Part shown: piece by piece, positions 23,225-37,989 of the stretch
Layout of the letters: each line of letters opens with the position of its first letter
Numbering within the stretch: the stretch's first letter is position 1
The notes under the pieces: model-generated
Database searches by the model: none
Told to the model about the DNA's origin: nothing
What the model saw: the letters and a program-made list of their open reading frames with translations, nothing else
Assembly (NCBI GenBank): GCA_003220315.1
Contig: QHSA01000134.1
Span: 2,759-66,758, forward strand
Length of the DNA: 64,000 nt
Source of the DNA: Candidatus Rokuibacteriota bacterium
Lineage (GTDB): Bacteria > Methylomirabilota > Methylomirabilia > Rokubacteriales > CSP1-6
Direction: 5' to 3'
Position numbers and translations under genes: made by a program

Positions 23225-23368
23225 GAAAGCACTTTCGCCTGTGGGGGCTGGACTTAGTCGGCTTCCAGCACCTATGGGTCTAGGCGGTCGGGTCGGACGG
23301 CGTCAGTATGCGGCCTCGCGGGAATCGCGACGACGAAGTACACTTGGGCCACTCACGAGGAGGCGCCC

Positions 23369-23752
23369 ATGGAGGACGAGGTCCGAGTCGCCGCCACCAG
23401 GACAGGGGTCGCGCAAGTCTTCGACCTCCATGCGCTCAAGGCCTTCGCCCCGGACACGCGCGTCCGGAAGATGCTCTTCAAGACCGATCAGCTCTGGTCC
23501 GAGATCGCCTGCTACGAGCCGGGACAGTCCACCGTCATGCACACGCACCCCCGGGAGGAAGAGGCGATCTTCGTGCTCGAGGGCACGGCGAACATGAACA
23601 TCGCGGGCGAGGAGATCGTGGTACCCGCCGGGGCCATCGTGAAGTTTCCGAGCAACGTCCCCCACGACGTCCGCAACGTCCAGAACGCGCGCTGCGTGAT
23701 CATGTTCATCAAGGCGAACCCGAAGCTCCTGAGGCGGTCGTCCGATGGGTAA
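23369..23752 (+). CDS. cupin domain protein
   Basis: YEPGQSTVMHTHPREEEAIFVLEG and VPHDVRN; GAGGAGG RBS. Confidence 0.85.
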   Translation: MEDEVRVAATRTGVAQVFDLHALKAFAPDTRVRKMLFKTDQLWSEIACYEPGQSTVMHTHPREEEAIFVLEGTANMNIAGEEIVVPAGAIVKFPSNVPHDVRNVQNARCVIMFIKANPKLLRRSSDG

Positions 23753-24086
23753 CGTCGAGCGCTGCGACACGACGCTGCCGACCAACGAGATGATGTTCTA
23801 CGTCCGGCGCGACCCGGCGCTTCGGGCGCGATGGCTCACCGACCTCCCCGGGATCGCGAAGGAGTTCGGTCTGAGCCGCGCGGAGTACGAGGCGATCCGG
23901 GATCAGGACCCCAAGCGGCTCATGGACCTCGGTGTCCACCAGTATTACGTCCCCCAGATCCTGCGCCTCTTCTTCGGCGCCGCCCAGAACGCGAACGCGA
24001 GCGCCGCGCTCCAGTGCTACCGGCGCGCCTTTCCGGAGGAGACGGCGAAGGCAATGGCGCTGGAGACGCGACGGGAGGGGACCTAG
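23745..24086 (+). CDS. LigA-like small subunit of extradiol ring-cleavage dioxygenase
   Basis: DPALRARW...FGLSRAEYEAIRDQDPKRLMDLGVH pattern; directly upstream of a LigB gene. Confidence 0.7.
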   Translation: MGNVERCDTTLPTNEMMFYVRRDPALRARWLTDLPGIAKEFGLSRAEYEAIRDQDPKRLMDLGVHQYYVPQILRLFFGAAQNANASAALQCYRRAFPEETAKAMALETRREGT

Positions 24087-24089
24087 GCG

Positions 24090-24935
24090 ATGGCGCGGAT
24101 CGTCGCGGCGATGGCGATGACCCATTCTCCCGGACTCACCGGCTGGTTCACGCGCGCGCCCGAGGCGTACCAGCAGCTCGCCCTCGGCGCCACGGCGGAG
24201 ATGCGGCGACGCCTCGAGGCCGCGCGCCCTGACGCCCTGGTGATGTTCACCAACGACCACCTGCTCAACTGGCCGATCAACAACATCCCCGAGTACGCCG
24301 TCGGGATCGGCGAGGAGCATGTCGGCCCGGCCGACTGGTTCGACGAGTGGCTGGGCATGGAGAAGTACCGCGTCCCCGGCCATCCCGCGCTGGCCCGGTG
24401 GATCGTCAACGAGGGGGCGCGTCGGCGCCTCCAGTTCGCCTGGCTGCGCCGGATGCAGTTCGACGACGGGATCTCGGTGCCCACCCACTACCTGAACCCC
24501 GACGCGAGGTTCAGGCTCGTCCCGGTCGGCATGAACTGCACCGTGCCGCCGATCCCGACGCCGGAGCGGGCGTACCACGTCGGGTCCGTGCTCCGCGACG
24601 TGCTGCACGCGTACCCCGGCGACGATCGGATCGCCGTGATCGCGACGGGCGGGCTCTCGCACGAGCCGGGGGGTCCGCGCTACTTCTGGGTGGACGAGGA
24701 GTTCGACCGGTGGTTCCTCGACCTGCTCGCGAAAGGCGACCACGAGACGCTGCTCGCCGAGTGCACCCTCGAGCGCATGGAGGCGGCGGGCTCGGGCGGC
24801 ACCGCGGAGCTCCTCTCCTGGTTCCTCGTTCTCGCGATGACCCGCGGCCCGGCCGACGTGCTCGCCTACATGCCCGCGGTCGCCTGGCGCTCCGGCACGG
24901 GGATGGTCGCGTGGGGCGAGCTCGCCGGGGACTGA
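24090..24935 (+). CDS. LigB-family (class III) extradiol dioxygenase
   Basis: Fe ligands in MTHSPG, NDH and AELLSW; catalytic His in GGLSHE. Confidence 0.85.
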   Translation: MARIVAAMAMTHSPGLTGWFTRAPEAYQQLALGATAEMRRRLEAARPDALVMFTNDHLLNWPINNIPEYAVGIGEEHVGPADWFDEWLGMEKYRVPGHPALARWIVNEGARRRLQFAWLRRMQFDDGISVPTHYLNPDARFRLVPVGMNCTVPPIPTPERAYHVGSVLRDVLHAYPGDDRIAVIATGGLSHEPGGPRYFWVDEEFDRWFLDLLAKGDHETLLAECTLERMEAAGSGGTAELLSWFLVLAMTRGPADVLAYMPAVAWRSGTGMVAWGELAGD

Positions 24936-24961
24936 ACGCGCGCGAGCCCGCCGCCACGCCG

Positions 24962-25912
24962 ATGCCCACCACGCACACGCTGGATTGCGAGACGGTCCAC
25001 TACGAGTGGAATAACGCGCTCGTGCCGAGACTCGAGATCGAGCCGGGTGACACCGTCGTCTTCGACACGCGCGACTCCGCGGACGGCTACTACCGGCCCG
25101 CCTCGTCGCACGCCGATGTCCTCGCGCGGGGTCCGTTCCGCGGCCACCCGCTGACGGGGCCCGTTCGGGTCAACGGCGCGCGGCCCGGCGACGTGCTGGT
25201 GGTCGAGATCGTGGAGGTCCGGCCGCGGGCGTCCTTCGGCTGGACCGCGATCCGACCCGGGCGCGGTCTCCTCCCGGAGGCAGAGTTCGCCAAGCCATTC
25301 CTACAAATCTGGGATCTCGCCGATGGCACCCACGCGCGCATGGGACACGGCATCGCCGTGCCGATCGAGCCGTTCCCCGGCGTGATGGGCACGGCGCTCG
25401 ACGAGCCCGGCCGCCACAGCACCATGCCGCCGAGGAAGAACGGCGGCAACATGGACGTGAAACACCTCGTGGCCGGCACGACCCTCTACCTGCCGGTCTG
25501 GGTGGACGGTGCCCTGTTCAGCGTCGGCGACGCGCACGCGGCGCAGGGTGACGGCGAGGTGTGCGTGACCGCCGTCGAGATGGTGGCGAGGGTCACGCTC
25601 CGGTTCGACCTCCAGCCGAGACGCGCCCTGAAGGAGCCCCAGCTCCGGACGCGCGGGCCCCTCGCCGCCGGCACGAATCACGGACCGTTCTTCGCGACGA
25701 CGGCGCACGGTCCCGATCTCTTCGCCGCCGCGCAGCAGGCCGTCCGCTACATGATCGACCATCTCGTCACGGAGCGCGGGCTCTCGCGCGAGGAGGCGTA
25801 CATCCTCTCGAGCGTCGCCGTCGACCTCAAGATCAGCGAGATCGTGGACACCCCCAACTGGATCGTCTCCGCGTTCCTCCCCGAGTCCGTCTTCACCCAG
25901 CGGGCGCGATGA
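24962..25912 (+). CDS. acetamidase/formamidase family protein
   Basis: HPLTGPVRVNGARPGDVL, PFPGVMG, PPRKNGGNMD and GDAHAAQGDGEVC. Confidence 0.88.
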   Translation: MPTTHTLDCETVHYEWNNALVPRLEIEPGDTVVFDTRDSADGYYRPASSHADVLARGPFRGHPLTGPVRVNGARPGDVLVVEIVEVRPRASFGWTAIRPGRGLLPEAEFAKPFLQIWDLADGTHARMGHGIAVPIEPFPGVMGTALDEPGRHSTMPPRKNGGNMDVKHLVAGTTLYLPVWVDGALFSVGDAHAAQGDGEVCVTAVEMVARVTLRFDLQPRRALKEPQLRTRGPLAAGTNHGPFFATTAHGPDLFAAAQQAVRYMIDHLVTERGLSREEAYILSSVAVDLKISEIVDTPNWIVSAFLPESVFTQRAR

Positions 25913-26700
25913 CGCTCGATCGTCTCGACCACCTAGTGCTCACCGTCCGCGATCTCGACGCCACGTGCGACTTCTACCGCCGGGTCCTCGGCATGGAGCC
26001 GGTGAGGTTCGCGGCGGGCCGGCTCGCGCTGCGATTCGGATCGCAGAAGATCAACCTGCACCCGGCCGGGCCGGAGCTCGGGCTGAAGGCGGCGCGGCCG
26101 ACGCCAGGCTCGGGCGACCTCTGCTTCCTGACGGACGAGCCGCTCGAGGTCTGGGGCCGCCACCTCGAGGAGTGTCGGGTGCCCATCCTCGAGGGGCCGG
26201 TGGAGCGCACGGGCGCCCTCGGCCCGATCGAGTCGATCTACCTGCGCGACCCCGACGGCAACCTGCTCGAGATCGCCCGCCAGCTCGGGATGGCCGAGGA
26301 CGGGTTGGCGGAGCTCCGCGAGTGGCTCAGGCGCTGGCAGGCGTGCGTACGCGCGCGGGACTTCGAGGGCGGCCGGCGCCTGTGCGCACCCGAGCTGATC
26401 GCTTTCGGCACGGTCGCCGACTTCGTCGAGGGCGTGGACCGGGTCATGGAGGCGCAGTGGCGCCGCGTGTGGCCGAGCATTCGCGACTTCACGATTCGTA
26501 TCGATGAGGCACGCGGTGCGGTTCAGGGCGACGAGGCCTGGGTCGCGGCGCCCTGGGACACGCTCGGCGTGCGAGCCGACGGCACGACGTTCCCGCGGCC
26601 CGGGCGGCTCACGATCGCCTTCGCGCGGCGCGCGGGTCGCTGGCTCGCCGTGCACACCCACTTCTCGCTCACACCATCTGACTCTCGCGTGAACCCCTAG
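25909..26700 (+). CDS. VOC/glyoxalase domain fused to NTF2/SnoaL-like domain
   Basis: N-half LDHLVLTVRD...QKINLH...SIYLRDPDGNLLE; C-half ...GRLTIAF.R..GRWLAVHTHFS; no stop between. ATG 25909 overlaps the upstream TGA. Confidence 0.75.
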   Translation: MTLDRLDHLVLTVRDLDATCDFYRRVLGMEPVRFAAGRLALRFGSQKINLHPAGPELGLKAARPTPGSGDLCFLTDEPLEVWGRHLEECRVPILEGPVERTGALGPIESIYLRDPDGNLLEIARQLGMAEDGLAELREWLRRWQACVRARDFEGGRRLCAPELIAFGTVADFVEGVDRVMEAQWRRVWPSIRDFTIRIDEARGAVQGDEAWVAAPWDTLGVRADGTTFPRPGRLTIAFARRAGRWLAVHTHFSLTPSDSRVNP

Positions 26701-26722
26701 CGCACACCCGGAGGAGGGCGCG

Positions 26723-27559
26723 ATGCACATCGGCGTCTGCATGTTCAACACCGACTACGCGATCCGGATCGAGGAGCTGGCCCGCACGGCCGAGGAGCGC
26801 CGCTTCGAGTCCCTCTTCGTCCCCGAGCACACGCACATCCCCGCGAGCCGCCGCACGCCGTTCCCCAGCGGCGGCGAGCTGCCGCGCGAGTACGCTCACA
26901 CGCTCGATCCCTTCGTCGCGCTGGCCCACGCCGCGGCGGTCACGACCCGGATCCGGCTCGGCACGGGGATCTGCCTGATCATCGAGCGGGACACGATCAC
27001 GACCGCCAAGGAGGTGGCGAGCGTGGACTTCGTGTCGAACGGGCGCTTCCTGTTCGGGATCGGCGGGGGCTGGAACGTCGAGGAGATGGAGCACCACGGC
27101 ACCGACCCGAAGACGCGCTTCAAGCGGCTCGGTGAGCAGGTGCTCGCCATGAAGCAGATCTGGACGAAGGAGGCGGCCGAGTTTCACGGGAAGTTCGTGA
27201 GCTTCGACCCGATCTGGATGTGGCCGAAGCCCGTGCAGAAGCCCCACCCGCCGATCCTCCTCGGCGGCGAGAGTGGCCACACGCTGCAGCGGGTCGTGGA
27301 CTTCTGCGACGGCTGGTTCCCCCGCGGGCGCGCGGGCGACGTGATCTTCACGGGGCTCGCGGACCTCAGGGCGCGCGCGGCCCGCGCGGGGCGCGACATG
27401 AAGACGATCTCCGTCTCCGTCTTCGGCGCCAAGCCCGAGGCGGCCGCGCTCGACCGGCTCGAGGCGGCCGGCGTGACGCGCGCAATTCTCAGGTTGCCGT
27501 CGGAGCCGCGCGACCGGGTGCTGCCGCTCCTGGATCAGTACGCCAAGCTCGTCCGGTGA
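26723..27559 (+). CDS. LLM-class F420-dependent oxidoreductase (Rv2161c-like)
   Basis: FESLFVPEHTHIP, LDPFVALA, GIGGGWNVEEM and PKPVQKPHPPILLGG. Confidence 0.85.
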   Translation: MHIGVCMFNTDYAIRIEELARTAEERRFESLFVPEHTHIPASRRTPFPSGGELPREYAHTLDPFVALAHAAAVTTRIRLGTGICLIIERDTITTAKEVASVDFVSNGRFLFGIGGGWNVEEMEHHGTDPKTRFKRLGEQVLAMKQIWTKEAAEFHGKFVSFDPIWMWPKPVQKPHPPILLGGESGHTLQRVVDFCDGWFPRGRAGDVIFTGLADLRARAARAGRDMKTISVSVFGAKPEAAALDRLEAAGVTRAILRLPSEPRDRVLPLLDQYAKLVR

Positions 27560-27993
27560 GCCTGGACCTCCCGGCGTGGGCCGCCGAGCTCTTGCGCGAG
27601 AGCCGCGTCGCGCGGCTCGGCACGGCGGACCGCGCCGGGCGGCCGCTCGTGGTCCCGGTCTGCTACGCCTTCGACGGACGCGCCTGCTTCTCGGCGATCG
27701 ACGCGAAGCCCAAGCGTGTCGCTGGCCGTGACCTCCGACGCGTGCGCAACATCGAGCAGAATCCGCACGTGTCGCTCGTCGTAGACCGCTACGACGAGGA
27801 CTGGTCGCGGCTCGCCTGGGTGATCGTCGAGGGTCGGGCCGCCCTCGTGACCGAGGGGTCCGTGCGCGCGCTGGCCGTGGACCTCTTGCGAGCCAAGTAC
27901 GCGCAGTACCGCACCATGGGGCTCGACCGGGAGGGGGCGACGGTCATTCGAATCGCGCCCGAACGGGCGCTGGCCTGGAGGTACGCCAGCTAG
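27556..27993 (+). CDS. PPOX-class (pyridoxamine 5'-phosphate oxidase-like) F420-dependent protein
   Basis: VARLGTAD...PLVVPVCYA, IDAKPK, RVRNIEQNPHVSLVVDRYDEDWSRL and KYAQY. GTG 27556. Confidence 0.82.
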   Translation: MSLDLPAWAAELLRESRVARLGTADRAGRPLVVPVCYAFDGRACFSAIDAKPKRVAGRDLRRVRNIEQNPHVSLVVDRYDEDWSRLAWVIVEGRAALVTEGSVRALAVDLLRAKYAQYRTMGLDREGATVIRIAPERALAWRYAS

Positions 27994-29540
27994 CGCTTCT
28001 GATCCTGGAGCCCGTCCGGCGTCACCACCACGCCGGCCTGGCCTGCCTGCCGCATCTGATAGGGAAGCCCCAGCTTGTCGAGGACCGTCCGGAGCTCCGA
28101 CTCGCCATGGGCGTCGAGGAACTCGACGCTGATCACCGCGAGGTTGGAGACCTTGCCTTGGCTGTCCTGGAGCTGGACGACCTGCGCGTTCCGCTGATGA
28201 TCGTGGAAGTCGTAGATCGTGCACATCGGAAATTCGTGATGCAGGTACTCGCGCACCGAGGCGATCTTCGCCTCGGTGTCGTTCAGGAGGGGCTTCTCGG
28301 GGAATCTCCCGGTCTTCGTGTCGTCGAGCGGGGCCGTCTCGGGGAACTTCTCGATCTTCACGTCGTCGAGCGCGGGTTTCTCGAGAAACTGCCCGATCCT
28401 CACGTTGTCGAGTGCGGGCTTCTCGAGAAACGCCCCGACCTTCACGTTGTCAAGTGCGGGCTTCTCGAGAAACGCCCCGACCTTCGCGTCGTCGAGCGGG
28501 GTCTTCTCGAGGAACTTCCGCCACTGCGGCACCAGCTCGCCATTCGGCGGGAGCTTGACGACGTCGAGCAGCGCGCGCCGCATGGCGTCCGCGTGTCGCC
28601 CGGCGCCTCCGTTGTGGAAGGGTCCGACGTGCGCGCCTACGGGCTCCTTCTCGGGCTCTGGCGTCGGGCTCACTGGCCTTTCGTGCGCGGCGACGGGGAC
28701 AGGGTCGGCCGAGCGAGGGTCGAACGTGCCGGCGAGCTTCTCGAGGAACTTCCGCCATGCGGGGGTCATCTCGTGCTCGTCGTCCAGCCTGGCGTCGGCC
28801 GCCGGTGCTGCCGGCTGCGACACGGGCTCCCGGGACGGCATCGCGGGGGCCGGGGTCTCGGCGACCGGTGCACTCGAGGCAGCGGCCCACGCCGTGGACT
28901 CAGCCTGTCTGGGTGAGCCATGGGGCGCCTGCGTCTCGGGTGTCAGGAGGCCGAACCACCGGGACGGTTGCGCGGGCTCGGCGGCCGGACGCGACGCCGC
29001 GAGCGGCGCCGGGCGGCCGAAGACAACGGGGTCCGCGGGCGCGGCGGCGGCAGTCGCCGGCGGCGTGGCTCGCGCGGGCTCGGTTGCCGCCCAGTCGACG
29101 GGGTCGAGGTAGAATCCGGTCGCCTCGTTGACCTCGACGCACCGATACTCGAAGCAGTTCACGGCCGGGAAAGCCAGCAGCCTGATCTTTCTGAGGAACG
29201 ACTCGGGCAGGCGCTCGGCGATGAACACGACGCGCGGAGGCCAGCCACCGGCGCTGTCGCCCCCCGGCATCAGACGCCGGACGGACTCCGGATACTCGAG
29301 CGTCCACGCGTAGGCCTCGACCATCCTGAAGAGCATCGTGTCGTCGCCCGTGAAGCCGAGCGCGATGAGCGCCGGCGTCTTGCGTCGATCCACGCCGACG
29401 AGCTCGACTGTCGACCGGCCGAAGTTGACGGTGGTGGAGAGTACGCGGAAGCCAGGCTCCACCGCTTCAGCGTTTTCGGCGACAAGCGCCTGGAGCTGGG
29501 ACAGGTCCTTGACTTCGTGCTTCCTGAATGTCAGCTTCAT
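27990..29540 (-). CDS. hypothetical protein: degenerate PD-(D/E)xK-like N-domain, Pro/Ala linker, six 14-aa repeats, conserved-looking C-domain
   Basis: Long ORF from ATG 29540 (MKLTFRKHEV) with coding-like codon usage; a sigma54 promoter lies immediately upstream. Confidence 0.7.
   Translation of the reverse strand: MKLTFRKHEVKDLSQLQALVAENAEAVEPGFRVLSTTVNFGRSTVELVGVDRRKTPALIALGFTGDDTMLFRMVEAYAWTLEYPESVRRLMPGGDSAGGWPPRVVFIAERLPESFLRKIRLLAFPAVNCFEYRCVEVNEATGFYLDPVDWAATEPARATPPATAAAAPADPVVFGRPAPLAASRPAAEPAQPSRWFGLLTPETQAPHGSPRQAESTAWAAASSAPVAETPAPAMPSREPVSQPAAPAADARLDDEHEMTPAWRKFLEKLAGTFDPRSADPVPVAAHERPVSPTPEPEKEPVGAHVGPFHNGGAGRHADAMRRALLDVVKLPPNGELVPQWRKFLEKTPLDDAKVGAFLEKPALDNVKVGAFLEKPALDNVRIGQFLEKPALDDVKIEKFPETAPLDDTKTGRFPEKPLLNDTEAKIASVREYLHHEFPMCTIYDFHDHQRNAQVVQLQDSQGKVSNLAVISVEFLDAHGESELRTVLDKLGLPYQMRQAGQAGVVVTPDGLQDQKR
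28263..28514 (-). repeat. in-frame 42-bp x6 tandem repeat (FLEKPALDNVKVGA-type)
   Basis: Units: FLEKTPLDDAKVGA, FLEKPALDNVKVGA, FLEKPALDNVRIGQ, FLEKPALDDVKIEK, FPETAPLDDTKTGR, FPEKPLLNDTEAKI. Confidence 0.85.
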
Positions 29541-29554
29541 TCGGACACTGATCG

Positions 29555-29570
29555 AGCAACCGGTGTGCCA
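29555..29570 (-). promoter_or_regulatory. sigma54 (-24/-12) promoter
   Basis: Minus strand reads TGGCAC-ACCGG-TTGCT, a full match to TGGCAC-N5-TTGCW; ends 14 bp before ATG 29540. Confidence 0.75.
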
Positions 29571-29712
29571 GTGGCGGAGGCCCACTCCAGCCCGCCGAAT
29601 CAAGAGGTTAGGGCGGCGTGGACGCTCTGGACCCTGTCAGGGGCCGGCCACAGTGGCACACGCGAACACGACCGGCCGTCACGCGGGGTCGAGCGTAGTG
29701 ATCGGCCAGAAA

Positions 29713-29737
29713 TTGACCAGTGTTGACAGGCGGTCAA
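29713..29737. promoter_or_regulatory. nested inverted repeat (TTGACC-N13-GGTCAA containing TTGAC-N5-GTCAA), candidate enhancer (UAS)
   Basis: Sequence ttgaccagtgttgacaggcggtcaa; located ~95 and ~140 bp upstream of the two divergent sigma54 boxes. Confidence 0.5.
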
Positions 29738-29831
29738 AATCTAGGCATGTGGTCTCGTGCCTTGGTAGGAGGCAGGGTCTTAACGCGTTGATTCCAAGAG
29801 AAAAGAGGGATGAGGCCCCACTCAAGGACCG

Positions 29832-29847
29832 TGGCACCCGGATTGCT
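29832..29847 (+). promoter_or_regulatory. sigma54 (-24/-12) promoter
   Basis: TGGCAC-CCGGA-TTGCT (GG-N10-GC), upstream of the first GAF-GGDEF gene. Confidence 0.75.
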
Positions 29848-29901
29848 GGCTCTAGGGAATCTGATGGCACCGTCCGAGCCCACGGTGGACCGGCGTTGGG
29901 A

Positions 29902-30972
29902 ATGACGGCCACTGAAACCATGTCGCTTGCGATCAACCTCACCGAGGCGTTCCGTGACCTCGTGCAGATCGGCATCGCCCTCACGAGCGAGCGGGACCTC
30001 GCGACGCTGCTGCACCGGATCCTGACCGAGGCGCGTCGCTTCACGCGCGCCGAGGCGGGCACGCTCTTCCTTCGCGAGAAGGACGAGCTGCACTTCGCGG
30101 TCGTCCAGAACGACCGGCTCGCCCGACGGCTGGGCGACCCGGAGATGCAGCGTCTGTTGCAGTCCGAGCCCCTGAAGCTCTCCGAGCCGAGCTTGGCCGG
30201 CCACGTCGCGCTGATGGGCGAGATCGTCAACCTTCCCGACACCTACGCGATCCCGCCAGACCGACCCTACAGCTTCTATCCGCTCTTCGACGTCCGATGC
30301 GACTACAAGACCCGGTCGGCCCTCGTGGTGCCGCTCCAGGACCCGGCCGGGAACATCTTCGGGGTCCTCGAGCTCATCAACGCCCTCGACGAGAGCGGAC
30401 GCGTCGTACCGTTCGACGTCGAGTACGAGGGCCTCGTGCGCTCGCTCGCCTCGCAAGCCGCCGTCGCGATCCGAAACGCGCGGCTCGAGGACCTCTCGTT
30501 CAAGGACGCGTTGACGGATGTGTACAACCGGCGGTACTTCATCGTGCGCATCGAGGAGGAATCCCGGCGGCACCTGCGGTTCGCCGAGCCAGTGTCGCTC
30601 GTCTTGCTGGACCTCGATCGCTTCAAGGACGTGAACGACCGGTTCGGGCACCGCGCGGGCGACGAGGCGTTGCGCGAGGTCGCGCAGGTCCTGCTCAAGC
30701 ACTCGCGGAACTTTACCGTCGTCACCCGGTACGGGGGCGACGAGTTCGCGGTGCTCCTGGTCAACACGGGCAAGGACGGCGCGGTCGCGTACGGGGAGCG
30801 GATCCGCGAGGTCATCGCGGAGCACGCCTTCGCCCACGGCACCGTGACCGTCAGTCTGGGTGTCGCGAGCCTCCCGGAGGATGCCGCGAGCGGCGACGAC
30901 CTCGTGGTCGCCGCGGACAAGGCGATGTACGAGGCGAAGCGCCTGGGCCGGAATCGCGTCGTCGCGGTCTAG
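29902..30972 (+). CDS. GAF-GGDEF diguanylate cyclase (paralogue 1)
   Basis: GAF (DYKTRSALVVPL...GVLELIN), DLDRFKDVNDRFGH and RYGGDEF. Start 29902 or 29920. Confidence 0.92.
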   Translation: MTATETMSLAINLTEAFRDLVQIGIALTSERDLATLLHRILTEARRFTRAEAGTLFLREKDELHFAVVQNDRLARRLGDPEMQRLLQSEPLKLSEPSLAGHVALMGEIVNLPDTYAIPPDRPYSFYPLFDVRCDYKTRSALVVPLQDPAGNIFGVLELINALDESGRVVPFDVEYEGLVRSLASQAAVAIRNARLEDLSFKDALTDVYNRRYFIVRIEEESRRHLRFAEPVSLVLLDLDRFKDVNDRFGHRAGDEALREVAQVLLKHSRNFTVVTRYGGDEFAVLLVNTGKDGAVAYGERIREVIAEHAFAHGTVTVSLGVASLPEDAASGDDLVVAADKAMYEAKRLGRNRVVAV

Positions 30973-30998
30973 GCACTCTGGAACGTCGGGAGGCCACG

Positions 30999-32060
30999 CT
31001 GGCGCCACCGGAACCCCCAGCCATCGATCTCACCCAGGCCTTCAGAGAGCTGGTGCAGATCGGGATCACGCTGACCAGCGAGCGCGACCTGAGCGTCCTG
31101 CTGGAGCGGATTCTGACCGAGGCGCGTCGCTTCACGCGCGCCGAGGCCGGCACGCTGTTCCTCCGCGATGGTGAGCAGCTCCGCTTCGCCGTGGTCCAGA
31201 ACGACCGGCTGTCGGGGAAGCTCGGCACGGAGGAGATGCGGCGTCAGTTCGAGGAGCAGCCCCTCGACCTCCGCGAGATGAGCCTCGCCGGGCACGTCGC
31301 GCTCACGGGCGACATCCTGAACCTTCCCGAGCCCTACGCGATCCCGCCCGACCGGCCGTACAGCTTCGACGCGCGGGTGGACGCGCGCATGAACTACCGG
31401 ACCGAGTCCATCCTCGTGGTGCCGCTCCAGGGCCCCTCGGGGAACATCCTCGGCGTGCTCGAGCTGATCAACGCCCTTGACGGGGGTCGAGTGGTCCCCT
31501 TCGCCCCCCAGTACGAGCCCCTCGTGCGAGCGCTCGCCGCGCAGGCCGCCGTCGCGATCCGCAACGCGCGACTCGAGGACCTGTCGCTGAAGGACGCGCT
31601 GACGGACGTGTACAACCGTCGGTACTTCATGATTCGCCTGGAGGAGGAGTTCAAGCGCCACACGCGGTTCCGCGAGCCGCTGTCGCTGGTCATGCTCGAC
31701 GTCGACCACTTCAAAGAGGTCAACGACCGCTTCGGCCACCGGGCGGGTGACGAGGTGCTCCGCGGCATCGCCGCGCTCCTCCTGAGGCACTCGCGCAGCT
31801 TCAGCGTCGTCACCAGGTACGGAGGCGACGAGTTCGCCATCGTCCTCGTCAACACCCCCAAGGACGGCGCCCTGACGTACGCCGAGCGGATCCGGTCCGT
31901 CGTGGCGGAGTACGAGTTCCGCCACGGCATCGTCACCGTCAGTCTGGGCGCAGCCTCCTTGCCCGAGGACGGCGCCTGCGGCGACGACCTCGTCGTCGCC
32001 GCCGACAAGGCACTCTACGATGCGAAGCGGCTGGGACGGAATCGAGTCGCGCCGCTCTGA
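30999..32060 (+). CDS. GAF-GGDEF diguanylate cyclase (paralogue 2); probable CTG start
   Basis: DVDHFKEVNDRFGH and RYGGDEF; collinear with paralogue 1; GGAGG 5 nt before the in-frame CTG at 30999. Confidence 0.85.
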   Translation: MAPPEPPAIDLTQAFRELVQIGITLTSERDLSVLLERILTEARRFTRAEAGTLFLRDGEQLRFAVVQNDRLSGKLGTEEMRRQFEEQPLDLREMSLAGHVALTGDILNLPEPYAIPPDRPYSFDARVDARMNYRTESILVVPLQGPSGNILGVLELINALDGGRVVPFAPQYEPLVRALAAQAAVAIRNARLEDLSLKDALTDVYNRRYFMIRLEEEFKRHTRFREPLSLVMLDVDHFKEVNDRFGHRAGDEVLRGIAALLLRHSRSFSVVTRYGGDEFAIVLVNTPKDGALTYAERIRSVVAEYEFRHGIVTVSLGAASLPEDGACGDDLVVAADKALYDAKRLGRNRVAPL

Positions 32061-32068
32061 GCGGGGTC

Positions 32069-33112
32069 ATGGCTGACCTGACGCGACTCCTCGACGAGCT
32101 CCTCGAGATCGGGATCGCGCTCACGAGCGAGCGGGATCTCGGGGCGCTCCTCGAGCGCATCCTCTCGCAGGCCCGGCGCGTCACGCGTGCGGAGGCCGGC
32201 ACGGTGTTCCTGCGCGACGGCGACCACCTCCGCTTCGCGGTCGTCCAGAACGACTTCCTCGAGGCGCGGCTGGGCAAGCGCGAGATGGAACGACGGCTGC
32301 AGGCCGAGCCGATGCCGCTCGGCGAGCCGAGCCTGGCCGGCCACGTCGCCCAGACCGGGGAGCTCATCAACGTGAGCGACGCGTACGCGATCGTCGGGCA
32401 ACGGACCGTGGCGTTCAACAAGACGGTCGACGAGACGACCGACTACGCGACCCGCTCCGTCTTCGTCGTGCCGCTCCAGGACATCAACGGCAACATCGTG
32501 GGCGTGCTCGAGCTCCTCAACGCCCTGGGCGAGGACGGCTCGGTCGTCCCGTTCGACCCGGGGTACGAGAAGCTGGTCCGCGCCCTCGCCTCCCAGGCTG
32601 CCCTGGCGATCCGCAACGCGCGGCTCGAAGACCTGTCGTTCAAGGACCCGCTGACCGATCTGTTCAACCGGCGTTACTTCGCGCTCCGCCTCGACGAGGA
32701 GGCCAAACGCGCCGCGCGCTTCGGCCACCCCCTGTCGCTCGTCTACCTCGACCTCGACGACTTCAAGAAGCTGAACGAGGACAAGGGGCGGCCGGCGGGC
32801 GACGAGGTGCTCAGGGAGGTGGCGCGGCTCCTCGTGAAGCACTCGCGCAGCTTCACGATCGTGGCGCGCCGGGAGGGCGACGACTTCGCCGTGATCCTGG
32901 CGAACACGCCGAAGGCCGGCGCGATGAGCTATGCCGAGCGCATCCGGGGCGTCCTCGAGCAGCACCCGTTCCCGCCGGGCCCGGTCACGGCGAGCCTCGG
33001 CGTAGCGGCCTTCCCCGCCGACGCGGCCAGCGCCGAGGACCTCATGGCCCGGGCCGAGCAGGCGCTCACCGAGGGGAAATCGCGCGGCCGGAATCGCGTC
33101 GCGCAGCGCTGA
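32069..33112 (+). CDS. GAF-GGDEF protein (paralogue 3) with degenerate active site
   Basis: RREGDDF replaces RYGGDEF; NEDKGR replaces NDxxGH. Confidence 0.88.
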   Translation: MADLTRLLDELLEIGIALTSERDLGALLERILSQARRVTRAEAGTVFLRDGDHLRFAVVQNDFLEARLGKREMERRLQAEPMPLGEPSLAGHVAQTGELINVSDAYAIVGQRTVAFNKTVDETTDYATRSVFVVPLQDINGNIVGVLELLNALGEDGSVVPFDPGYEKLVRALASQAALAIRNARLEDLSFKDPLTDLFNRRYFALRLDEEAKRAARFGHPLSLVYLDLDDFKKLNEDKGRPAGDEVLREVARLLVKHSRSFTIVARREGDDFAVILANTPKAGAMSYAERIRGVLEQHPFPPGPVTASLGVAAFPADAASAEDLMARAEQALTEGKSRGRNRVAQR

Positions 33113-33139
33113 GCCTCTCGGTCGACCACGGTCCCCTTC

Positions 33140-34180
33140 TCAGACGCGCGCTTCCTCGCAGTAGAGCCCGAGCGCGCGGAGCGCCGGCTCGTCGTTGAAC
33201 TGGAAGAGAGCGGCCGGCGCAGACGGCGCCGCGTTCCGGTGCTCGACGAAGTGCCACGGCGGCGCCACGAACGTGTCACCGGCCTCCCACGCGAGCCGCG
33301 CGTCACCGATGCGCGACTCGCCGCGCCCCTCGAGCACGTGATAGACGGCGCTCGCCGTGCGGCGCGCGGCGGGCGTCGTCTCGCCCGGGCGGAGCCACTG
33401 GCACTCGCAGCCCATCGTCGGCAGTGGCGGCGCCCCGGTCCTTGGATTGACGTAGGCGAGCGCCACGGGCGCCCCCGCCGGCGCCGCGTCCGCCATGCTG
33501 GCGAGCGCGCGGCGCACGGTGGCCCAGGGCCACCGCACCTGCGGGTATCCGGTGTCCTCGTAACGCGACTGGCGCGGCACGAGCCCGGCCGCGGTGAACT
33601 CGTCCTGCGACGAGTCGACCGTGGTGGACGGCGGCGGCGCCGGTCGCATCTTCGACGCCCAGCTCGCGTCGACGCTGCGTACGAGCGGGAGGTCGAGACC
33701 GTCGAGCCACACGACCGGCCGGGACCCTTCGTGGCCGTGATCGTGCCAGCGCATCGGCGGCGTGATGATCAGGTCGCCCGGCTCCATCGCGCACCTGACG
33801 CCGTCCACGCTGGTGAAGGCGCCGTGCCCCTCGACGACCAGCCGGAGCGCCGCGGGCGTGTGGTGGTGGCTGGGCGCGGCCTCGCCGGGCAGGATGATTT
33901 GCAGCCCCGCGAAGAGGGTCGAGGTGACGGCGTACGCCCCGTCGAGGCCGGGGTTCTTCAAGACGAGCACGCGACGCTCCGCCTGCTCGATCGGTACAAG
34001 CCGTGCCGCCTCGAGCAGGAGCGGGCGGAGGTCCTGCCACCGCCAGCGGTGCGGCACCGCGGCCGTCACGCGCTCGTTCGGCAGGAGGACATGGAGGGCG
34101 GTCCAGAGCGGTCCCAGGGAGAGGGCGTCCAGCGCCTCCCTGAAGGGGGGCGGGAGGCTCGCGTCGCGTGTCGTCACCAT
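33140..34180 (-). CDS. gtdA: gentisate 1,2-dioxygenase-like bicupin
   Basis: ERRVLVLKNPG, TLFAGLQIILPGE..PSHHHTPAALR, WHDHG and WEAGDTFVAPPW. ATG 34180. Confidence 0.8.
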   Translation of the reverse strand: MVTTRDASLPPPFREALDALSLGPLWTALHVLLPNERVTAAVPHRWRWQDLRPLLLEAARLVPIEQAERRVLVLKNPGLDGAYAVTSTLFAGLQIILPGEAAPSHHHTPAALRLVVEGHGAFTSVDGVRCAMEPGDLIITPPMRWHDHGHEGSRPVVWLDGLDLPLVRSVDASWASKMRPAPPPSTTVDSSQDEFTAAGLVPRQSRYEDTGYPQVRWPWATVRRALASMADAAPAGAPVALAYVNPRTGAPPLPTMGCECQWLRPGETTPAARRTASAVYHVLEGRGESRIGDARLAWEAGDTFVAPPWHFVEHRNAAPSAPAALFQFNDEPALRALGLYCEEARV

Positions 34181-34229
34181 CGGAGTGGGACCGATGATAC
34201 CCGGCCACGCCACGAGCGGCGACGCCTTC

Positions 34230-34246
34230 TTGACATGTATACATCT
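34230..34246. promoter_or_regulatory. TTGACA box overlapping palindrome ATGTATACAT, candidate GntR operator
   Basis: ttgaca at 34230-34235; atgtatacat at 34235-34244 (acatgtatacatct, 1 mismatch over 14); lies between divergent gtdA and gntR. Confidence 0.6.
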
Positions 34247-34268
34247 CGTATGTAATCGTTCGCCGCCG

Positions 34269-34922
34269 ATGACGACGCGCGCGCGGGCCCGGACGTATCT
34301 GGCCGACACGGTCTACGCCGCGCTGCGCCAGGCCCTCCTCGACCGCGAGTTCGATCCGGGCGAGCCGCTCACCGAGCTCGAGCTCAGCCGGCGGTTCCGG
34401 GTGAGCCGGACGCCCGTCCGCGAGGCGCTCGCCAAGCTCGAGCGCGACCACCTCGTGCGCGTGGTCCCGAAGAAGGGCGCGTTCGTGCGCACGCTGTCGC
34501 ACGACGAGCTCCGCGACCTCTACGAGGTGCGCGAGGCGCTCGAGGCCTTGGCGGTCCGGCTCGGGGGGCCACGCGTGAGCCGCGAGGAGCTCGAGGGCTT
34601 CGAGGCGCGCTTCCGCGAGCTCCGGGCGCGTGGCTCCAGGGCCACCGCCACCGAGGTGCGCCCGCTTGGCGAGGAGCTCCACCAGTACCTGCTCAAGCGA
34701 GCCGAGAATGCGAAGCTCGTCGACGTCCTCGAGCACATGCGCGAGCAGGTCCGACCCGTCTGGACCATGGCCATCGTGGCGCCCCGGCGCGTCCAGGCGC
34801 TCGTCCGCGAGCACCTCGCGATCATCGACGCGCTCAAGCGGCGAGACGTGCGCCGCGCGGAGCGGCTGATGACGCTCCACGTACGGCGCGTCCGCGACGC
34901 GATCTTCCGGCTGGTCGACTGA
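34269..34922 (+). CDS. GntR family transcriptional regulator (FCD type)
   Basis: ELELSRRFRVSRTPVREAL HTH, LYEVREALE and EHLAIIDAL. Confidence 0.92.
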   Translation: MTTRARARTYLADTVYAALRQALLDREFDPGEPLTELELSRRFRVSRTPVREALAKLERDHLVRVVPKKGAFVRTLSHDELRDLYEVREALEALAVRLGGPRVSREELEGFEARFRELRARGSRATATEVRPLGEELHQYLLKRAENAKLVDVLEHMREQVRPVWTMAIVAPRRVQALVREHLAIIDALKRRDVRRAERLMTLHVRRVRDAIFRLVD

Positions 34923-35039
34923 GTGGCAGTGCGGACCTTAGAATACGCGGGGCCGCAGTGCGAGCCGCAGCCGCAGGCGAGGCGAGTCTGTGATCGAGCC
35001 CCCCGCCGTCCGAGGTGAGCCAATGAAAAGGAGCCTCCC

Positions 35040-35723
35040 ATGACCGCGCCGAGCCCGTTCCGTAAGGAGCTCGAGGCCGCCGTCAATGCCCGGCACAGCC
35101 GGCTGAACCCGTTCACCGAGAAGTGGGTGAAGGGCGAGCTGTCGCGCGCCCAGCTCGGCGCGTGGGCGGCACAGCACTACCAGTACGTGTCGCAGTTCCC
35201 GCGGTGGTGCGCCACCGTGTACGGCGAGTGCCCGGACCCGGACGCGCGCGACTTCCTGCTCGAGAACATCATCGAGGAGGAGTCGGGAACCAAGCACGTG
35301 GATCTCCTGATCCGCTTCGCCGAGGCGTGCGGCGTGAGCCGCGCCGAGGTCGAGACCGCGCGGCAGCTACCGACCACACGCGGGCTCACCGCCTGGTGCT
35401 ACGAGATGTCCCATCGGTCGTTCCACATCGCCGCGGCGGGGCTCCTGGTCGGCCTCGAGTCACAGGTGCCGGGCATCTACAGGCGCAACCTGCCGCCGCT
35501 CAAGACGCACTACGGCTTCACCGACCACGAGGTCGAGTTCTTCGCGATCCACATCGAGGCCGACGAGGTGCACGGCGAGCGCGGCTACGCGATCGTCGAG
35601 CGTCACGCGACGACCGCCGAGAAGAAGGCCGAGGCGATCGAGGCCGTGCGTCAGGCCACCCTGATGCGTTGGCAGTACATGACCGGGCTCCACCGCGCCT
35701 TCATCCTGAAGGAAGAGCCGTAG
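35040..35723 (+). CDS. heme-oxygenase-like diiron oxidase (TenA/PqqC/CADD superfamily)
   Basis: Diiron ligand motifs EEES.TKH, LESQ and HIEADEVH. Confidence 0.82.
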   Translation: MTAPSPFRKELEAAVNARHSRLNPFTEKWVKGELSRAQLGAWAAQHYQYVSQFPRWCATVYGECPDPDARDFLLENIIEEESGTKHVDLLIRFAEACGVSRAEVETARQLPTTRGLTAWCYEMSHRSFHIAAAGLLVGLESQVPGIYRRNLPPLKTHYGFTDHEVEFFAIHIEADEVHGERGYAIVERHATTAEKKAEAIEAVRQATLMRWQYMTGLHRAFILKEEP

Positions 35724-35769
35724 GCGAGTCGGTGATCGTGGCAGGGGGAGCCGCAGGCGAGGCGCGTCC

Positions 35770-36078
35770 ATGCCTCTGATCCGCGTGGCCCGCCTGGACG
35801 AGCTCCCGGCGGGCCAGCTCACGCGGGTGGAGGCGGGCGGCACGCGCATCGTCCTGGCCCGCGTCAAGGACGAGGTCTTCGCGTGCAACGATGTCTGCGC
35901 CCACCAGGGCGGCCCGCTGAGCGAGGGCAAGCTCTCCGGGGCGCGCCTCGCCTGCCCCTGGCACGGGTGGATGTACGACGTACGTACCGGTGAGTGCGTG
36001 CTACCCGGGCGCGGCCACCGCGTGGCGAGCTATCCGATCCGGATCGACGCGGGCGAGGTCTGGGTGGAGGTCCCCTGA
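35770..36078 (+). CDS. Rieske [2Fe-2S] ferredoxin
   Basis: CAHQG...CPWHG. Confidence 0.92.
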   Translation: MPLIRVARLDELPAGQLTRVEAGGTRIVLARVKDEVFACNDVCAHQGGPLSEGKLSGARLACPWHGWMYDVRTGECVLPGRGHRVASYPIRIDAGEVWVEVP

Positions 36079-36080
36079 CG

Positions 36081-36506
36081 ATGGCGCTCACGCAGAAACA
36101 CGCCCACGAGTGCATCCAGCGCGGATTCGCCAGGGCGCACGCCCTCGGCTTCAAGGTCGCCATCGCCGTCGTGGACGACGCGGGCCACCTCGTCGCGTGC
36201 GAGCGCATGGACGGCGCGCTCTGGGTCACGCCCGAGATCGCCCGGGCGAAGGCAAACGCCGCCGCCGCCTTCCGCACGACGACGCTCGAGCTCGAGGAGC
36301 GCTTCGGCAAGGGTCGCCAGCTCTTCGCGTCGAACGTCGCCATGCTCGGCGACTACGCGTTCGTCTTCGGCCGCGGCGCCGTGCCCATCGTCGAGGATGG
36401 GCAGATCGTCGGCGCCGTCGGCGTGAGCGGTGCGGTCCCCGCCGATAACGACCACACGATCGCCGACGAAGCCGCGGGACACCCCGAGCTTCCCAAGAGT
36501 CATTAG
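36081..36506 (+). CDS. GlcG/HbpS-like heme-binding protein (DUF336)
   Basis: AIAVVDDAGH....ERMDGA, IARAKA.AA and GAVGVSG.....DH. ATG 36081. Confidence 0.85.
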   Translation: MALTQKHAHECIQRGFARAHALGFKVAIAVVDDAGHLVACERMDGALWVTPEIARAKANAAAAFRTTTLELEERFGKGRQLFASNVAMLGDYAFVFGRGAVPIVEDGQIVGAVGVSGAVPADNDHTIADEAAGHPELPKSH

Positions 36507-36559
36507 GAGCGACCGGCGAGCGCCGGACTCCGCGAGCGGAGCCCCGGGCTCCTCCAGCA

Positions 36560-36614
36560 CGCCACCTTCGGTTGTTCCGGCCTCACGGTACCCGCTACAA
36601 TAGCCCCCCGTGAA
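36560..36614 (+). promoter_or_regulatory. promoter module (copy 1) ending in TACAAT-N8-GTG
   Basis: 46/55 ungapped identity to 41452-41506; TACAAT at 36596-36601. Confidence 0.6.
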
Positions 36615-36768
36615 GGTCGAGGTGGAGGTCTACCAGAACGAGGCGAAGGAGTGGGTAGCGACGGCCGTCGCCTACGACGTCACGGCGACGGGCCGCAGCG
36701 AGACGGAAGCTCTCGCGCGGGTCATGGAGGCCCTCGCGCGGCATTTCAAGGGTCGGCCCCGCCGATGA
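36610..36768 (+). CDS. small HicB-like protein (52 aa)
   Basis: MKVEVEVYQNEAKEWVATAVAYDVTATGRSETEALARVMEALARHFKGRPRR; the G.S..EAL.....AL pattern; ATGA overlap with the next gene. Not in the ORF track. Confidence 0.65.
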   Translation: MKVEVEVYQNEAKEWVATAVAYDVTATGRSETEALARVMEALARHFKGRPRR

Positions 36769-37949
36769 GGGGGGCGCTCGCCGGCCTCCGCGTCGTCGAC
36801 TGCTCCCGGCTGATCGCCGGCGGCGTGCTCGCGACCATCCTCGCCGACCACGGCGCGGACGTCGTCAAGGTCGAGAATCCGCGGGGCGGCGATCCGCTGC
36901 GCACCTGGCTCAAGGAGCGCGGCGAATTGTGGTGGAAGGTCTACGCGCGCGGGAAGCGCTCGATCACGCTCAATCTCGCCCACCCGCGCGGCCAGACTCT
37001 GCTCACGCGTCTGGTCAAGGACGCCGACGTCCTCGTCGAGAACTTCGTCCCGGGCACGCTCGAGAAGTGGGGGCTGGGCTGGGAGGTGCTCTCCGCCGAG
37101 AATCCGCGGCTGGTCCTCGCCCGCGTGTCGGGGTGGGGGCAGGACGGCCCCTACCGCGACCGTCCGGGTTTCGGCACGATGGTGGAGGCGATGAGCGGCT
37201 TCGCAGCCGCGACGGGGCCGGCGGACGGCCCGCCCACGCTGCCCTCGTTCCCGATGGCCGACATGGTCGCCGCGCTCGCGGGGGCCGCGGCGGTGCTCGC
37301 GGCGCTGCGTCATCGCGATCACGTCTCCGGTCGTGGGCAAGTCATCGACCTCTCCCTCTACGAGCCACTGCTCTCCCTCCTCGGGCCCATCGCCGCCGAG
37401 TACGCGCTCGACGGCACGATCCGGACACGCCACGGCAACCAGTCCGACAACGCGAGCCCCCGCGGCACCTACCGGACGCGCGACGGCAAGTGGATCGCGC
37501 TCTCGGCCTCGACGCCCGCCTCGGCCAGGGCCCTGTTCGACGGGCTCGGCCTCGCCGACCTGCTCGAGGATCCCCGGTTTTCGACCAACGACGCGCGGGT
37601 CGCCCACAACGACCTGGTCGACGCGGCGCTCGCGCGAGCGATCGGCGAGCGGACGCTCGACGAGATGCTCCACCGGTTCGAGACGCTGGACCTCACGGCG
37701 GCGCCCGTCTACGACATCGCGGACATCATCAAGGACCCGCACGTGGTCGCCCGCTCCATCCTCGTGGACGTCCCCGACGCCGACCTGGGCACCGTGCGCA
37801 TGACCGCGCCGACGCCCCGCCTCGCCGACACGCCCGCCTCGGTCCGCTGGGCCGGGCCGCCGCTCGGCGCCCACAACCATGACGTCTACACGTCGCTCGG
37901 GCTCGATGCGGCCGAGATCGACGAGCTCAAGCGTGCTGGGATCATCTAG
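36765..37949 (+). CDS. CaiB/BaiF family CoA transferase
   Basis: LADHGADVVKVE, DADVLVENFVPG, GWGQDGPY and DMVAAL (catalytic Asp). ATG 36765. Confidence 0.92.
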   Translation: MRGALAGLRVVDCSRLIAGGVLATILADHGADVVKVENPRGGDPLRTWLKERGELWWKVYARGKRSITLNLAHPRGQTLLTRLVKDADVLVENFVPGTLEKWGLGWEVLSAENPRLVLARVSGWGQDGPYRDRPGFGTMVEAMSGFAAATGPADGPPTLPSFPMADMVAALAGAAAVLAALRHRDHVSGRGQVIDLSLYEPLLSLLGPIAAEYALDGTIRTRHGNQSDNASPRGTYRTRDGKWIALSASTPASARALFDGLGLADLLEDPRFSTNDARVAHNDLVDAALARAIGERTLDEMLHRFETLDLTAAPVYDIADIIKDPHVVARSILVDVPDADLGTVRMTAPTPRLADTPASVRWAGPPLGAHNHDVYTSLGLDAAEIDELKRAGII

Positions 37950-37989
37950 CACGGTTCGACCGGGCCGCTCGCTCGTACCGATCGCCATC

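Follow-up and report, generated by a model that had tools for sequence, protein, structure and literature searches.

A conserved divergent locus with predicted sigma-54 promoters and GAF-GGDEF genes in the Rokubacteriales

Gene organization of the locus

The window analyzed here is a 64,000-nucleotide stretch (G+C content ~71%) of contig QHSA01000134.1 from a Candidatus Rokuibacteriota bacterium (order Rokubacteriales, phylum Methylomirabilota). Near its middle, a minus-strand gene for a 516-aa protein of an unnamed Rokubacteria family, hereafter referred to as type A, lies back-to-back with three plus-strand genes for GAF-GGDEF proteins, hereafter DGC1, DGC2, and DGC3 (DGC, diguanylate cyclase). 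The single 379-bp intergenic region between them carries two −24/−12 boxes of the sigma-54 type, which are 261 bp apart and face outwards: the minus-strand box faces the 516-aa open reading frame (ORF), and the plus-strand box faces the three tandem GAF-GGDEF genes. The coordinates of these and other features are collected in Table 1.

Occurrence and conservation of the two boxes

A preliminary description of this DNA, made from the sequence of the window, had reported two full-consensus boxes directed outwards, and both were recovered at the positions and on the strands that it gave. TGGCAC-N5-TTGCW has no other match in the 64 kb, and the number remains two when one mismatch is allowed. The expected number of exact matches in 64 kb is 0.01, and none of 100 shuffled sequences reached two; if one mismatch is tolerated, 0.41 matches are expected per window. 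The GG and GC dinucleotides are exactly 10 nt apart in both boxes. From the box positions, transcription start sites (TSSs) are predicted near 29544 (minus strand) for the type A gene and near 29858 (plus strand) for the GGDEF operon.

Conservation was examined using 29 loci of Rokubacteria/Methylomirabilota (L001–L029), which were obtained from a scan of species-representative genomes. The intergenic region, from the type A gene to the first GGDEF gene, was aligned for 24 loci and the window, giving 25 sequences. The type A-side box, TGGCA[CT]-N5-TTGC, is kept in 24 of them, the exception being L014 with a 6-nt spacer, and the GG-N10-GC of the GGDEF-side box is kept in 23 (the box of L002 is degenerate). 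The consensus positions are fixed among the 25 loci, and the five spacer bases are free to vary. The distance from box to box ranges from 245 to 279 bp, and the type A box starts 30–41 nt before the ATG. The gene linkage, which the preliminary description had named together with the boxes as the thing to look for in related genomes, is likewise conserved: every locus that reaches the upstream side has the type A gene back-to-back with two or three GAF-GGDEF genes. In a homologue that is 36% identical and located in a different context (L026; gene order OmpA, OmpA, homologue, CusF, acetyl-CoA synthetase), TGGCACGCCGGTTGCC is still found upstream. Because the consensus is fixed, the spacers drift, and the box is retained in the distant L026, a chance origin of the boxes is excluded, and on these comparisons both are very probably real sigma-54 promoters.

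Two homologues (P0015 and P0017) have over-extended ORF calls, so that the box itself appears in the translation as WHTGCS or WHTRCS, exactly four codons ahead of Met1. Irregular gene calls (over-extended, split, or truncated) were noted at L037 and L039 as well.

The distance between the type A box and the gene falls into two classes. In the window, L001–L004, and L008, only 14 nt lie between the end of the box and the ATG (29541–29554 in the window), and the leader predicted for these loci is ~4 nt with no Shine-Dalgarno sequence. In the remaining loci, the gap is 22–26 nt and contains a GGGGA or GGAGA Shine-Dalgarno sequence at the very 5′ end. The type A mRNA of these sequences with the short gap, the window included, may be translated as a leaderless message.

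Candidate activator and bend sites between the boxes

According to the preliminary description, bacterial enhancer-binding proteins (bEBPs) should bind 80–150 bp upstream of the promoters. Conserved candidate repeats do occur ~100–150 bp upstream of each promoter, and the binding of a protein to them is putative. The repeat on the type A side, UAS-B, is present in 21 of the 25 loci, 97–111 nt upstream of the type A box. The block on the GGDEF side, UAS-A, has the form TGACC-N13-GGTCA in the window; L020 carries it as a perfect inverted repeat of 10 bp (TGGTCATTGA-N8-TCAATGACCA). The most over-represented 5-mer between the boxes is TGACA/TGTCA, with 56 occurrences vs 13 expected, a figure that is descriptive and not a probability, the sequences being related by descent. 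The exact form GTGACA-N14-20-TGTCAC was not found in the window, where the copy of the repeat is imperfect (TGGCA...GTCA).

The upstream inverted repeat contains a third TGGCAC hexamer (plus strand, 29654–29659). No −12 partner accompanies this hexamer, and it was rejected as a promoter; because the orthologues read TGACAC at this position, it is regarded as a repeat half-site.

Sites matching the consensus for integration host factor (IHF) are located between the candidate activator sites and the boxes. On the type A side, the exact consensus is found at the same position in 7 of the 25 loci, and the block is AT-rich but degenerate in the rest. On the GGDEF side, the consensus is exact in the window and L009 only, and a conserved 'aaatc' block is found elsewhere. 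Each promoter is thereby accompanied by candidate sites of two kinds, for activator binding (about −110 to −155) and for bending (about −60 to −70). This combination corresponds to the standard arrangement of enhancer-dependent promoters established for the NtrC/NifA-class systems.

TSSs at sigma-70-like sites had been named in the preliminary description as something that would refute its reading. The scan of the intergenic region gave a single weak match (9/12) at 29713–29740, overlapping UAS-A; no −10 element of this match is conserved among the orthologues, and it is not conserved as a promoter. A terminator search at the locus found no convincing one, and an Rfam scan of 27500–33500 gave sub-threshold noise only, with no known cis-regulatory RNA.

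The GAF-GGDEF array

The three tandem GAF-GGDEF paralogues of the preliminary description were confirmed as genes, with the correction that the third has a degenerate active site. The pairwise identities among DGC1, DGC2, and DGC3 are 72, 61, and 58%, and the Pfam GGDEF domain scores 130–146 bits in all three vs a cut-off of 23.8 bits. The signatures are canonical and not of the Hypr type. In DGC1 and DGC2, the GGDEF motif, the metal-binding Asp, and the guanine-binding residues NDxxGHxxGD are intact in the window and in all orthologues. The inhibitory site (I-site) RxxD, five residues before GGDEF, was found in none of the three proteins, which have RNFT, RSFS, or RSFT there (RSFT in DGC3). 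Judging from these residues, DGC1 and DGC2 look like competent diguanylate cyclases without product-inhibition sites.

DGC3 is the last gene and degenerate in every locus examined. Its motif across the loci is [ED/A]GD[DGSAE]F, GH has become GR or GP, and many orthologues have Asn in place of the first metal-binding Asp. DGC3 is probably catalytically inactive, and it is probably a regulatory partner, which might act, for example, by forming unproductive heterodimers or by sensing nucleotides. The genes form three orthology classes, corresponding to DGC1, DGC2, and DGC3, across the loci. Some lineages have DGC2 and DGC3 only, and DGC1 appears to have arisen later by duplication of DGC2.

As for the GAF domain, the closest solved structures by sequence are PDE2A GAF-B (E = 1.6e-12), followed by PDE5, CyaB2, and PDE10. 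Because the GAF domains resemble cyclic-nucleotide-binding GAFs in sequence, a small ligand probably also controls the activity of the enzymes.

The start of DGC2 has a peculiarity: the probable start codon, CTG, lies 6 nt after a GGGAGG Shine-Dalgarno sequence (30986–31001 in the window). The corresponding codon in the orthologues is CTG in five loci and GTG in two, and a non-ATG start thus seems to be common to the loci.

The type A protein and its family

The ATG at 29540 is taken as the start of the type A gene because the family's N-terminus, MKLTF, shows little or no variation. More than 150 homologues were found, all labeled hypothetical, in metagenome-assembled genomes (MAGs) of Rokubacteria/Methylomirabilota, together with a few bins labeled Binatia, NC10, and Gaiellaceae. 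The protein could not be assigned to any Pfam, NCBIfam, PDB-sequence, or PADLOC family; the PADLOC search gave a single 13-bit match (E = 0.009), which was judged to be noise. The protein had been described as belonging to an unknown family. This holds in that no family could be assigned, and is to be qualified in that the N-terminal domain has a recognizable NucS-like fold, as described next.

An AlphaFold2 model of the type A protein, built from a 99-sequence alignment, consists of two confident domains joined by ~260 disordered residues. In a Foldseek search, the N-terminal domain matched 5gke_A (E = 1.7e-5, probability 1.0) and 2vld (2e-5), and more weakly SfsA and Card1. In agreement with this fold, the NCBIfam NucS family (NF003270) matches residues 15–59 weakly, with 11.2 bits vs a 216-bit cut-off; when the family alignment was used as a profile against PDB sequences, no match was obtained. 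The catalytic positions were compared by eye in the sequence alignments: residue 46 is E or D throughout, so that this acidic position is kept, and the position of the ExK pair is occupied by A60-L-G62 in the window and by T-L-G or A-L-D in the relatives. Because the ExK pair is lost, it is unlikely, on this comparison, that the domain cleaves DNA.

The disordered linker contains two conserved short helices. In the first WRKFL motif, W262, L266, and L269 are invariant, and P260, R263, K264, and F265 are at least 90% conserved; the helix of the model spans residues 261–270. The repeat that the preliminary description had noticed in this protein proved to be real, a 42-nt unit in 5.5 copies. Its 14-aa repeats represent a lineage-specific expansion just after the second WRKFL motif (alignment columns 630–750). 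Close orthologues differ widely in the number of these repeats, which are absent from most of them, whereas about five are present in the window and more in P0007 and P0009.

The C-terminal domain, when folded alone, has a predicted local distance difference test score (pLDDT) of 92 and a predicted TM-score (pTM) of 0.83. No significant structural relative was found for it, the best PDB match having E = 0.06 and TM < 0.5, and a homology search with this domain returned gene fragments only.

The B subfamily and its gene neighborhood

A full-library phmmer search with the N-terminal domain gave 337 representatives, and the domain is N-terminal in nearly all the matches listed. Among them is a second subfamily, B, which is also Rokubacterial and whose N-terminal domain is 35–45% identical to that of type A. 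In the B proteins, this domain is followed by a very long disordered region rich in Pro, Ala, and Glu and by a C-terminal motif, FPxDGxLxRQWxxFLNQ, which is the counterpart of the second WRKFL motif of type A. The B proteins end at this motif, without the extra C-terminal domain of type A. Many B genes are split or truncated in the assemblies, which is probably caused by the long Pro-rich repeats.

The gene context of B was read in seven loci (L033–L035 and L037–L040; L036 duplicates L035). In L033, L035, L037, L039, and L040, an NtrC-type bEBP gene (receiver, Sigma54_activat, and HTH_8 domains) lies directly upstream of the B gene. Between the two genes, a TGGTA[CT]-N5-TTGCT box was found in all four gaps that were read (L033, L035, L037, and L040). 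Downstream of B, L033 has a gene for a response-regulator HD-GYP protein, a c-di-GMP phosphodiesterase, with the HHERYDGSGYP motif intact, and L034, L035, and L037 have response-regulator HD_5 genes. Further genes of the cluster encode a receiver, methyltransferases, seven-transmembrane (7TM)-GAF histidine kinases, and hybrid histidine kinases. A divergent GAF-GGDEF gene is also found in L037 and L039; the copy in L037 has its own sigma-54 box near the start codon, and its product is 60% identical to DGC1 of the window over the full length. Thus, a protein of this family, this family of GAF-GGDEF proteins, and sigma-54 promoters are paired in two paralogous neighborhoods. The linkage of the unknown gene to GGDEF genes elsewhere, on which the preliminary description had placed weight, is seen in the B cluster (L037 and L039) and fails in L026, which has no GGDEF neighbor.

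One of these loci, L038 (a Rokuibacteriota MAG), has its own pair of outward-facing sigma-54 boxes, at 6808 (minus strand) and 7215 (plus strand). They separate a chemotaxis operon (CheY, CheZ, CheY, CheA-CheW, and methyl-accepting chemotaxis proteins) from an operon with the HD-GYP gene and the B paralogue, and a perfect palindrome, AGGTCAGTGACCT, is found between them.

Catabolic surroundings

The locus is flanked by catabolic genes on both sides. One flank (23258–27993) contains genes for cupin, the extradiol dioxygenase LigAB (LigA and LigB), formamidase, glyoxalase/SnoaL, luciferase-like oxidoreductase, and PNPOx proteins, and the other (33140–38829) contains genes for cupin, GntR, TenA/haem-oxygenase-like, Rieske, HbpS-like, CoA-transferase, and amidohydrolase proteins. 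This cluster is syntenic across ~25 Rokubacteria loci, and its LigB is 81–95% identical among them. The PNPOx-like gene (27559–27993, plus strand) and the type A gene (27990–29540, minus strand) converge with their stop codons overlapping by 4 nt, an overlap also found in L030. At a distance of 7 kb from the module lies a gene for an 817-aa multi-sensor protein (20731–23184, minus strand; PAS, PAS, GAF, and PAS domains) with no recognizable output domain, and a periplasmic binding protein gene (19423–20691) adjoins it.

Table 1 Features of the type A/GAF-GGDEF locus, in window positions
Feature	Position	Strand	Remarks
Type A gene	27990-29540	-	ORF, 516 aa, unnamed Rokubacteria family; ATG at 29540
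C-terminal globular domain of type A	27993-28286	-	Residues ~419-516; order alpha-beta3-alpha3-beta2
Tandem repeat in type A	28290-28519	-	TRF; 42-nt unit, 5.5 copies; 14-aa FLEKPALDxVKxGx repeats
Second motif of type A, LPxNGELxPQWRKFL	28506-28553	-	Residues ~330-345; conserved short helix in linker
First WRKFL motif of type A, PxWRKFLxxL	28731-28763	-	Residues ~260-270; short helix in disordered linker
N-terminal domain of type A	29091-29540	-	Residues 1-150; PD-(D/E)xK / NucS-EndoMS-like fold; pLDDT >90
Predicted sigma-54 -24/-12 promoter of type A gene	29555-29570	-	TGGCACACCGGTTGCT; exact match to TGGCAC-N5-TTGCW
IHF-consensus site	29598-29610	+	AATCAAGAGGTTA, consensus WATCAANNNNTTR; 27 nt upstream of type A box
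Inverted repeat UAS-B	29654-29681	.	TG[AG]CAG-N14-17-TG[TC]CA; candidate bEBP site, ~-110 to -137 from type A TSS
Conserved block UAS-A	29705-29737	.	TGACC/GGTCA and TTGACA half-sites; ~-120 to -155 from GGDEF-operon TSS
IHF-consensus site	29781-29793	-	AATCAACGCGTTA; 38 nt upstream of GGDEF-operon box
Predicted sigma-54 -24/-12 promoter of GAF-GGDEF operon	29832-29847	+	TGGCACCCGGATTGCT; exact match to TGGCAC-N5-TTGCW
DGC1	29920-30972	+	GAF-GGDEF, 350 aa; Pfam GGDEF 1e-42, GAF 4e-15; alternative in-frame ATG at 29902
DGC2	30999-32060	+	GAF-GGDEF; GGDEF motif intact; probable CTG start at 30999
DGC3	32069-33112	+	GAF-GGDEF paralogue; degenerate active site (EGDDF)

Search for the activator

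A six-frame motif search for the bEBP signatures GAFTGA and ESELFGH found none in the window or in L001–L029, and the same kind of search for the RpoN-box found none in the window or in these 29 loci (rpoN in whole genomes was not searched for). The bEBP genes (Sigma54_activat and HTH_8) that adjoin the B paralogue on Rokubacteria-type contigs show that sigma-54 activation machinery exists on such contigs. The NtrC-type regulator beside the B paralogue may be regarded as the best candidate for the missing activator. The preliminary description had proposed a single activator encoded elsewhere. The second half of this proposal agrees with the absence of bEBP signatures from the window; the first half is a supposition, since the two repeat blocks differ in sequence.

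Interpretation of the locus

Considering these results together, we find it fairly probable that the locus is a conserved divergent sigma-54-dependent cyclic di-GMP (c-di-GMP) signaling module of the Rokubacteriales. That the two transcription units are co-regulated is slightly favored. What speaks most for a functional linkage in the window, beyond inherited synteny, is that the same pairing recurs in the B cluster. Because a paralogue of type A is flanked there by bEBP, HD-GYP, and histidine kinase genes and by GAF-GGDEF genes of the same family, the type A family may be a working partner of c-di-GMP turnover; its participation in c-di-GMP signaling is nevertheless a tentative proposal, a little short of even chances.

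The mechanism may be imagined as follows. A phosphorylated bEBP encoded elsewhere, with the NtrC-type regulator found in the B cluster as the leading candidate, would bind the central repeats and contact the sigma-54 holoenzyme at both promoters through bent DNA, with looping assisted at the IHF-like sites. The cyclase operon and the type A protein would thereby be switched on together. The output of the cyclases would be gated by the GAF ligand and possibly also by DGC3, and, because the I-site is absent, it would not be subject to product inhibition. The type A protein, a cytoplasmic protein, would be a partner of the enzymes of c-di-GMP turnover, serving as effector, adaptor, or scaffold. 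The burst of c-di-GMP and the role in lifestyle or development that the preliminary description had suggested are conjectural. A more specific form of the proposal is that the family, with a core made up of the degenerate NucS-fold domain, the disordered linker, and WRKFL-type motifs, is a new class of c-di-GMP pathway effector or scaffold, which reads or organizes the c-di-GMP made by the co-induced GAF-GGDEF proteins and removed by the HD-GYP protein of the B cluster, and that the A and B genes constitute one sigma-54 regulon under the B-side NtrC-type regulator. This form is doubtful, and it is unlikely that the family binds c-di-GMP itself.

Several observations weigh against interpreting the locus as a sigma-54-dependent c-di-GMP module. 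With regard to its control, the presence of a sigma-54 system is indicated solely by the bEBP genes of the Rokubacteria-type contigs, the IHF consensus is exact in a minority of loci only, and the two upstream repeat blocks differ in sequence, so that two activators are possible. A sigma-54 promoter ~15 nt from the start codon would give a leaderless mRNA, which is unusual. With regard to its function, no known c-di-GMP-binding domain or motif (PilZ, RxxD) was found in the type A protein with Pfam and NCBIfam, and L026 keeps the sigma-54 box without a GGDEF neighbor. In addition, the flanking catabolic genes are equally conserved, so that the linkage of type A and GGDEF could be inherited gene order.

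Several of these observations recur in the explanation that survives best among the others, namely that the two units have separate activators and that type A is unrelated to c-di-GMP, being a DNA-binding, nucleoid, or repair-related protein by virtue of its NucS-like domain, with the adjacency to GGDEF genes reflecting inherited synteny. The different sequences of the two repeat blocks speak for separate activators, although both blocks share TGAC[AC] half-sites. An unrelated protein would agree with the synteny of the whole neighborhood including the catabolic genes, with the box of L026 in the absence of a GGDEF gene, and with an N-terminal fold that is that of DNA enzymes in a protein where no c-di-GMP-binding domain was detected. 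However, the pairing recurs in the B cluster together with HD-GYP and bEBP genes, which is hard to explain by gene order alone, and we regard this explanation as rather doubtful.

Another explanation places the module in the service of the flanking cluster for aromatic-ring catabolism, as a regulatory insert that would couple the availability of the cluster's substrate to c-di-GMP. It is compatible with the c-di-GMP module proposed above, and it accounts for the occurrence of the module at the same slot inside the catabolic cluster in ~25 loci. The flanking genes, however, have no sigma-54 boxes and have their own GntR regulator, and the paralogous B module is located in a purely signaling context; such a role is improbable.

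It is also conceivable that type A is a nuclease effector activated by cyclic nucleotides, in the manner of Card1/Can2 or Cap4, and that the locus is a defense system. The PD-(D/E)xK fold, the weaker Foldseek similarity to Card1, and the adjoining nucleotide cyclases would fit this idea. Nevertheless, no member of the family has the ExK pair, the PADLOC search gave nothing beyond noise, the locus has a stable core-genome position instead of lying in a variable island, and the GGDEF proteins are canonical and not of the Hypr type. With the catalytic residues lost, a defense system is very improbable and was rejected.

Finally, despite the one weak sigma-70-like match (9/12) in the intergenic region, it is hardly credible that the boxes are chance matches in GC-rich DNA and that transcription is sigma-70-dependent, since two matches were observed where 0.01 was expected, the consensus is kept in 23–24 of 25 loci with varying spacers, and no conservation as a promoter is seen for the sigma-70-like hexamers.

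Significance

Rokubacteria, which have large genomes, are uncultured bacteria abundant in soil. To our knowledge, their regulation is essentially undescribed. Comparison of the present locus among genomes yields a clean footprint of how sigma-54 promoters are organized in this phylum. The locus also draws attention to an uncharacterized, phylum-restricted family tied to both the synthesis and the breakdown of c-di-GMP in two paralogous neighborhoods, which makes this family a testable effector or scaffold candidate with a named candidate for the activator. Should the family be unrelated to c-di-GMP, an ordinary and well-documented sigma-54 regulon would still be left. Nothing in the finding overturns the current understanding.

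Literature searches combining Rokubacteria with sigma-54/RpoN, c-di-GMP with NucS, and GAF-GGDEF with sigma54 returned nothing relevant, and no searchable paper on the family or the module was found. The mention in Becraft et al. 2017 (PMC5712423) is limited to sensor proteins for nitrogen and acetoacetate. The regulatory logic of the locus is ordinary, and its protein component is new and restricted to the phylum.

Comparison with known systems

The N-terminal domain of type A matches the fold of the C-terminal nuclease domain of NucS/EndoMS (5gke and 2vld), and the first acidic position is kept. Unlike NucS/EndoMS, type A has neither the ExK pair nor the N-terminal DNA-binding/dimerization domain, its score against the NucS family is 11 vs 216 bits, and it carries a long disordered tail and an extra domain.

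PelD, PopA, and CdgA are degenerate GGDEF receptors or adaptors that bind c-di-GMP through the RxxD I-site. Like them, DGC3 keeps the GGDEF fold and not the catalytic motif; unlike them, it has RSFT in place of RxxD. Because this I-site is missing, DGC3 would need another mode of action, such as GTP sensing or heterodimer formation.

Lcd1 of Leptospira is a GAF-GGDEF diguanylate cyclase activated by cAMP. The DGCs of the present locus share with it the architecture of one GAF and one GGDEF domain in ~350 aa. Their GAF domain resembles the cyclic-nucleotide-binding type in its sequence similarity to PDE2A GAF-B. They differ from Lcd1 in forming an array of two or three genes that ends in a degenerate paralogue in every locus, in having a predicted sigma-54 promoter, and in having no I-site.

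As for the arrangement of the promoters, divergent sigma-54 operons with a common upstream activator region are known in zraP/zraSR (ZraR) and hyc/hyp (FhlA, IHF) of E. coli and in nifHDK/nifJ (NifA) of Klebsiella. The present locus, which is known from sequence alone, differs from these in that the activator gene is not adjacent, the cargo is a GAF-GGDEF array and an uncharacterized protein, and one leader is ~4 nt. It is similar to them in that outward −24/−12 promoters lie a few hundred bp apart, inverted-repeat candidate activator sites are located between them, and IHF-type sites occur between the activator site and the promoter.

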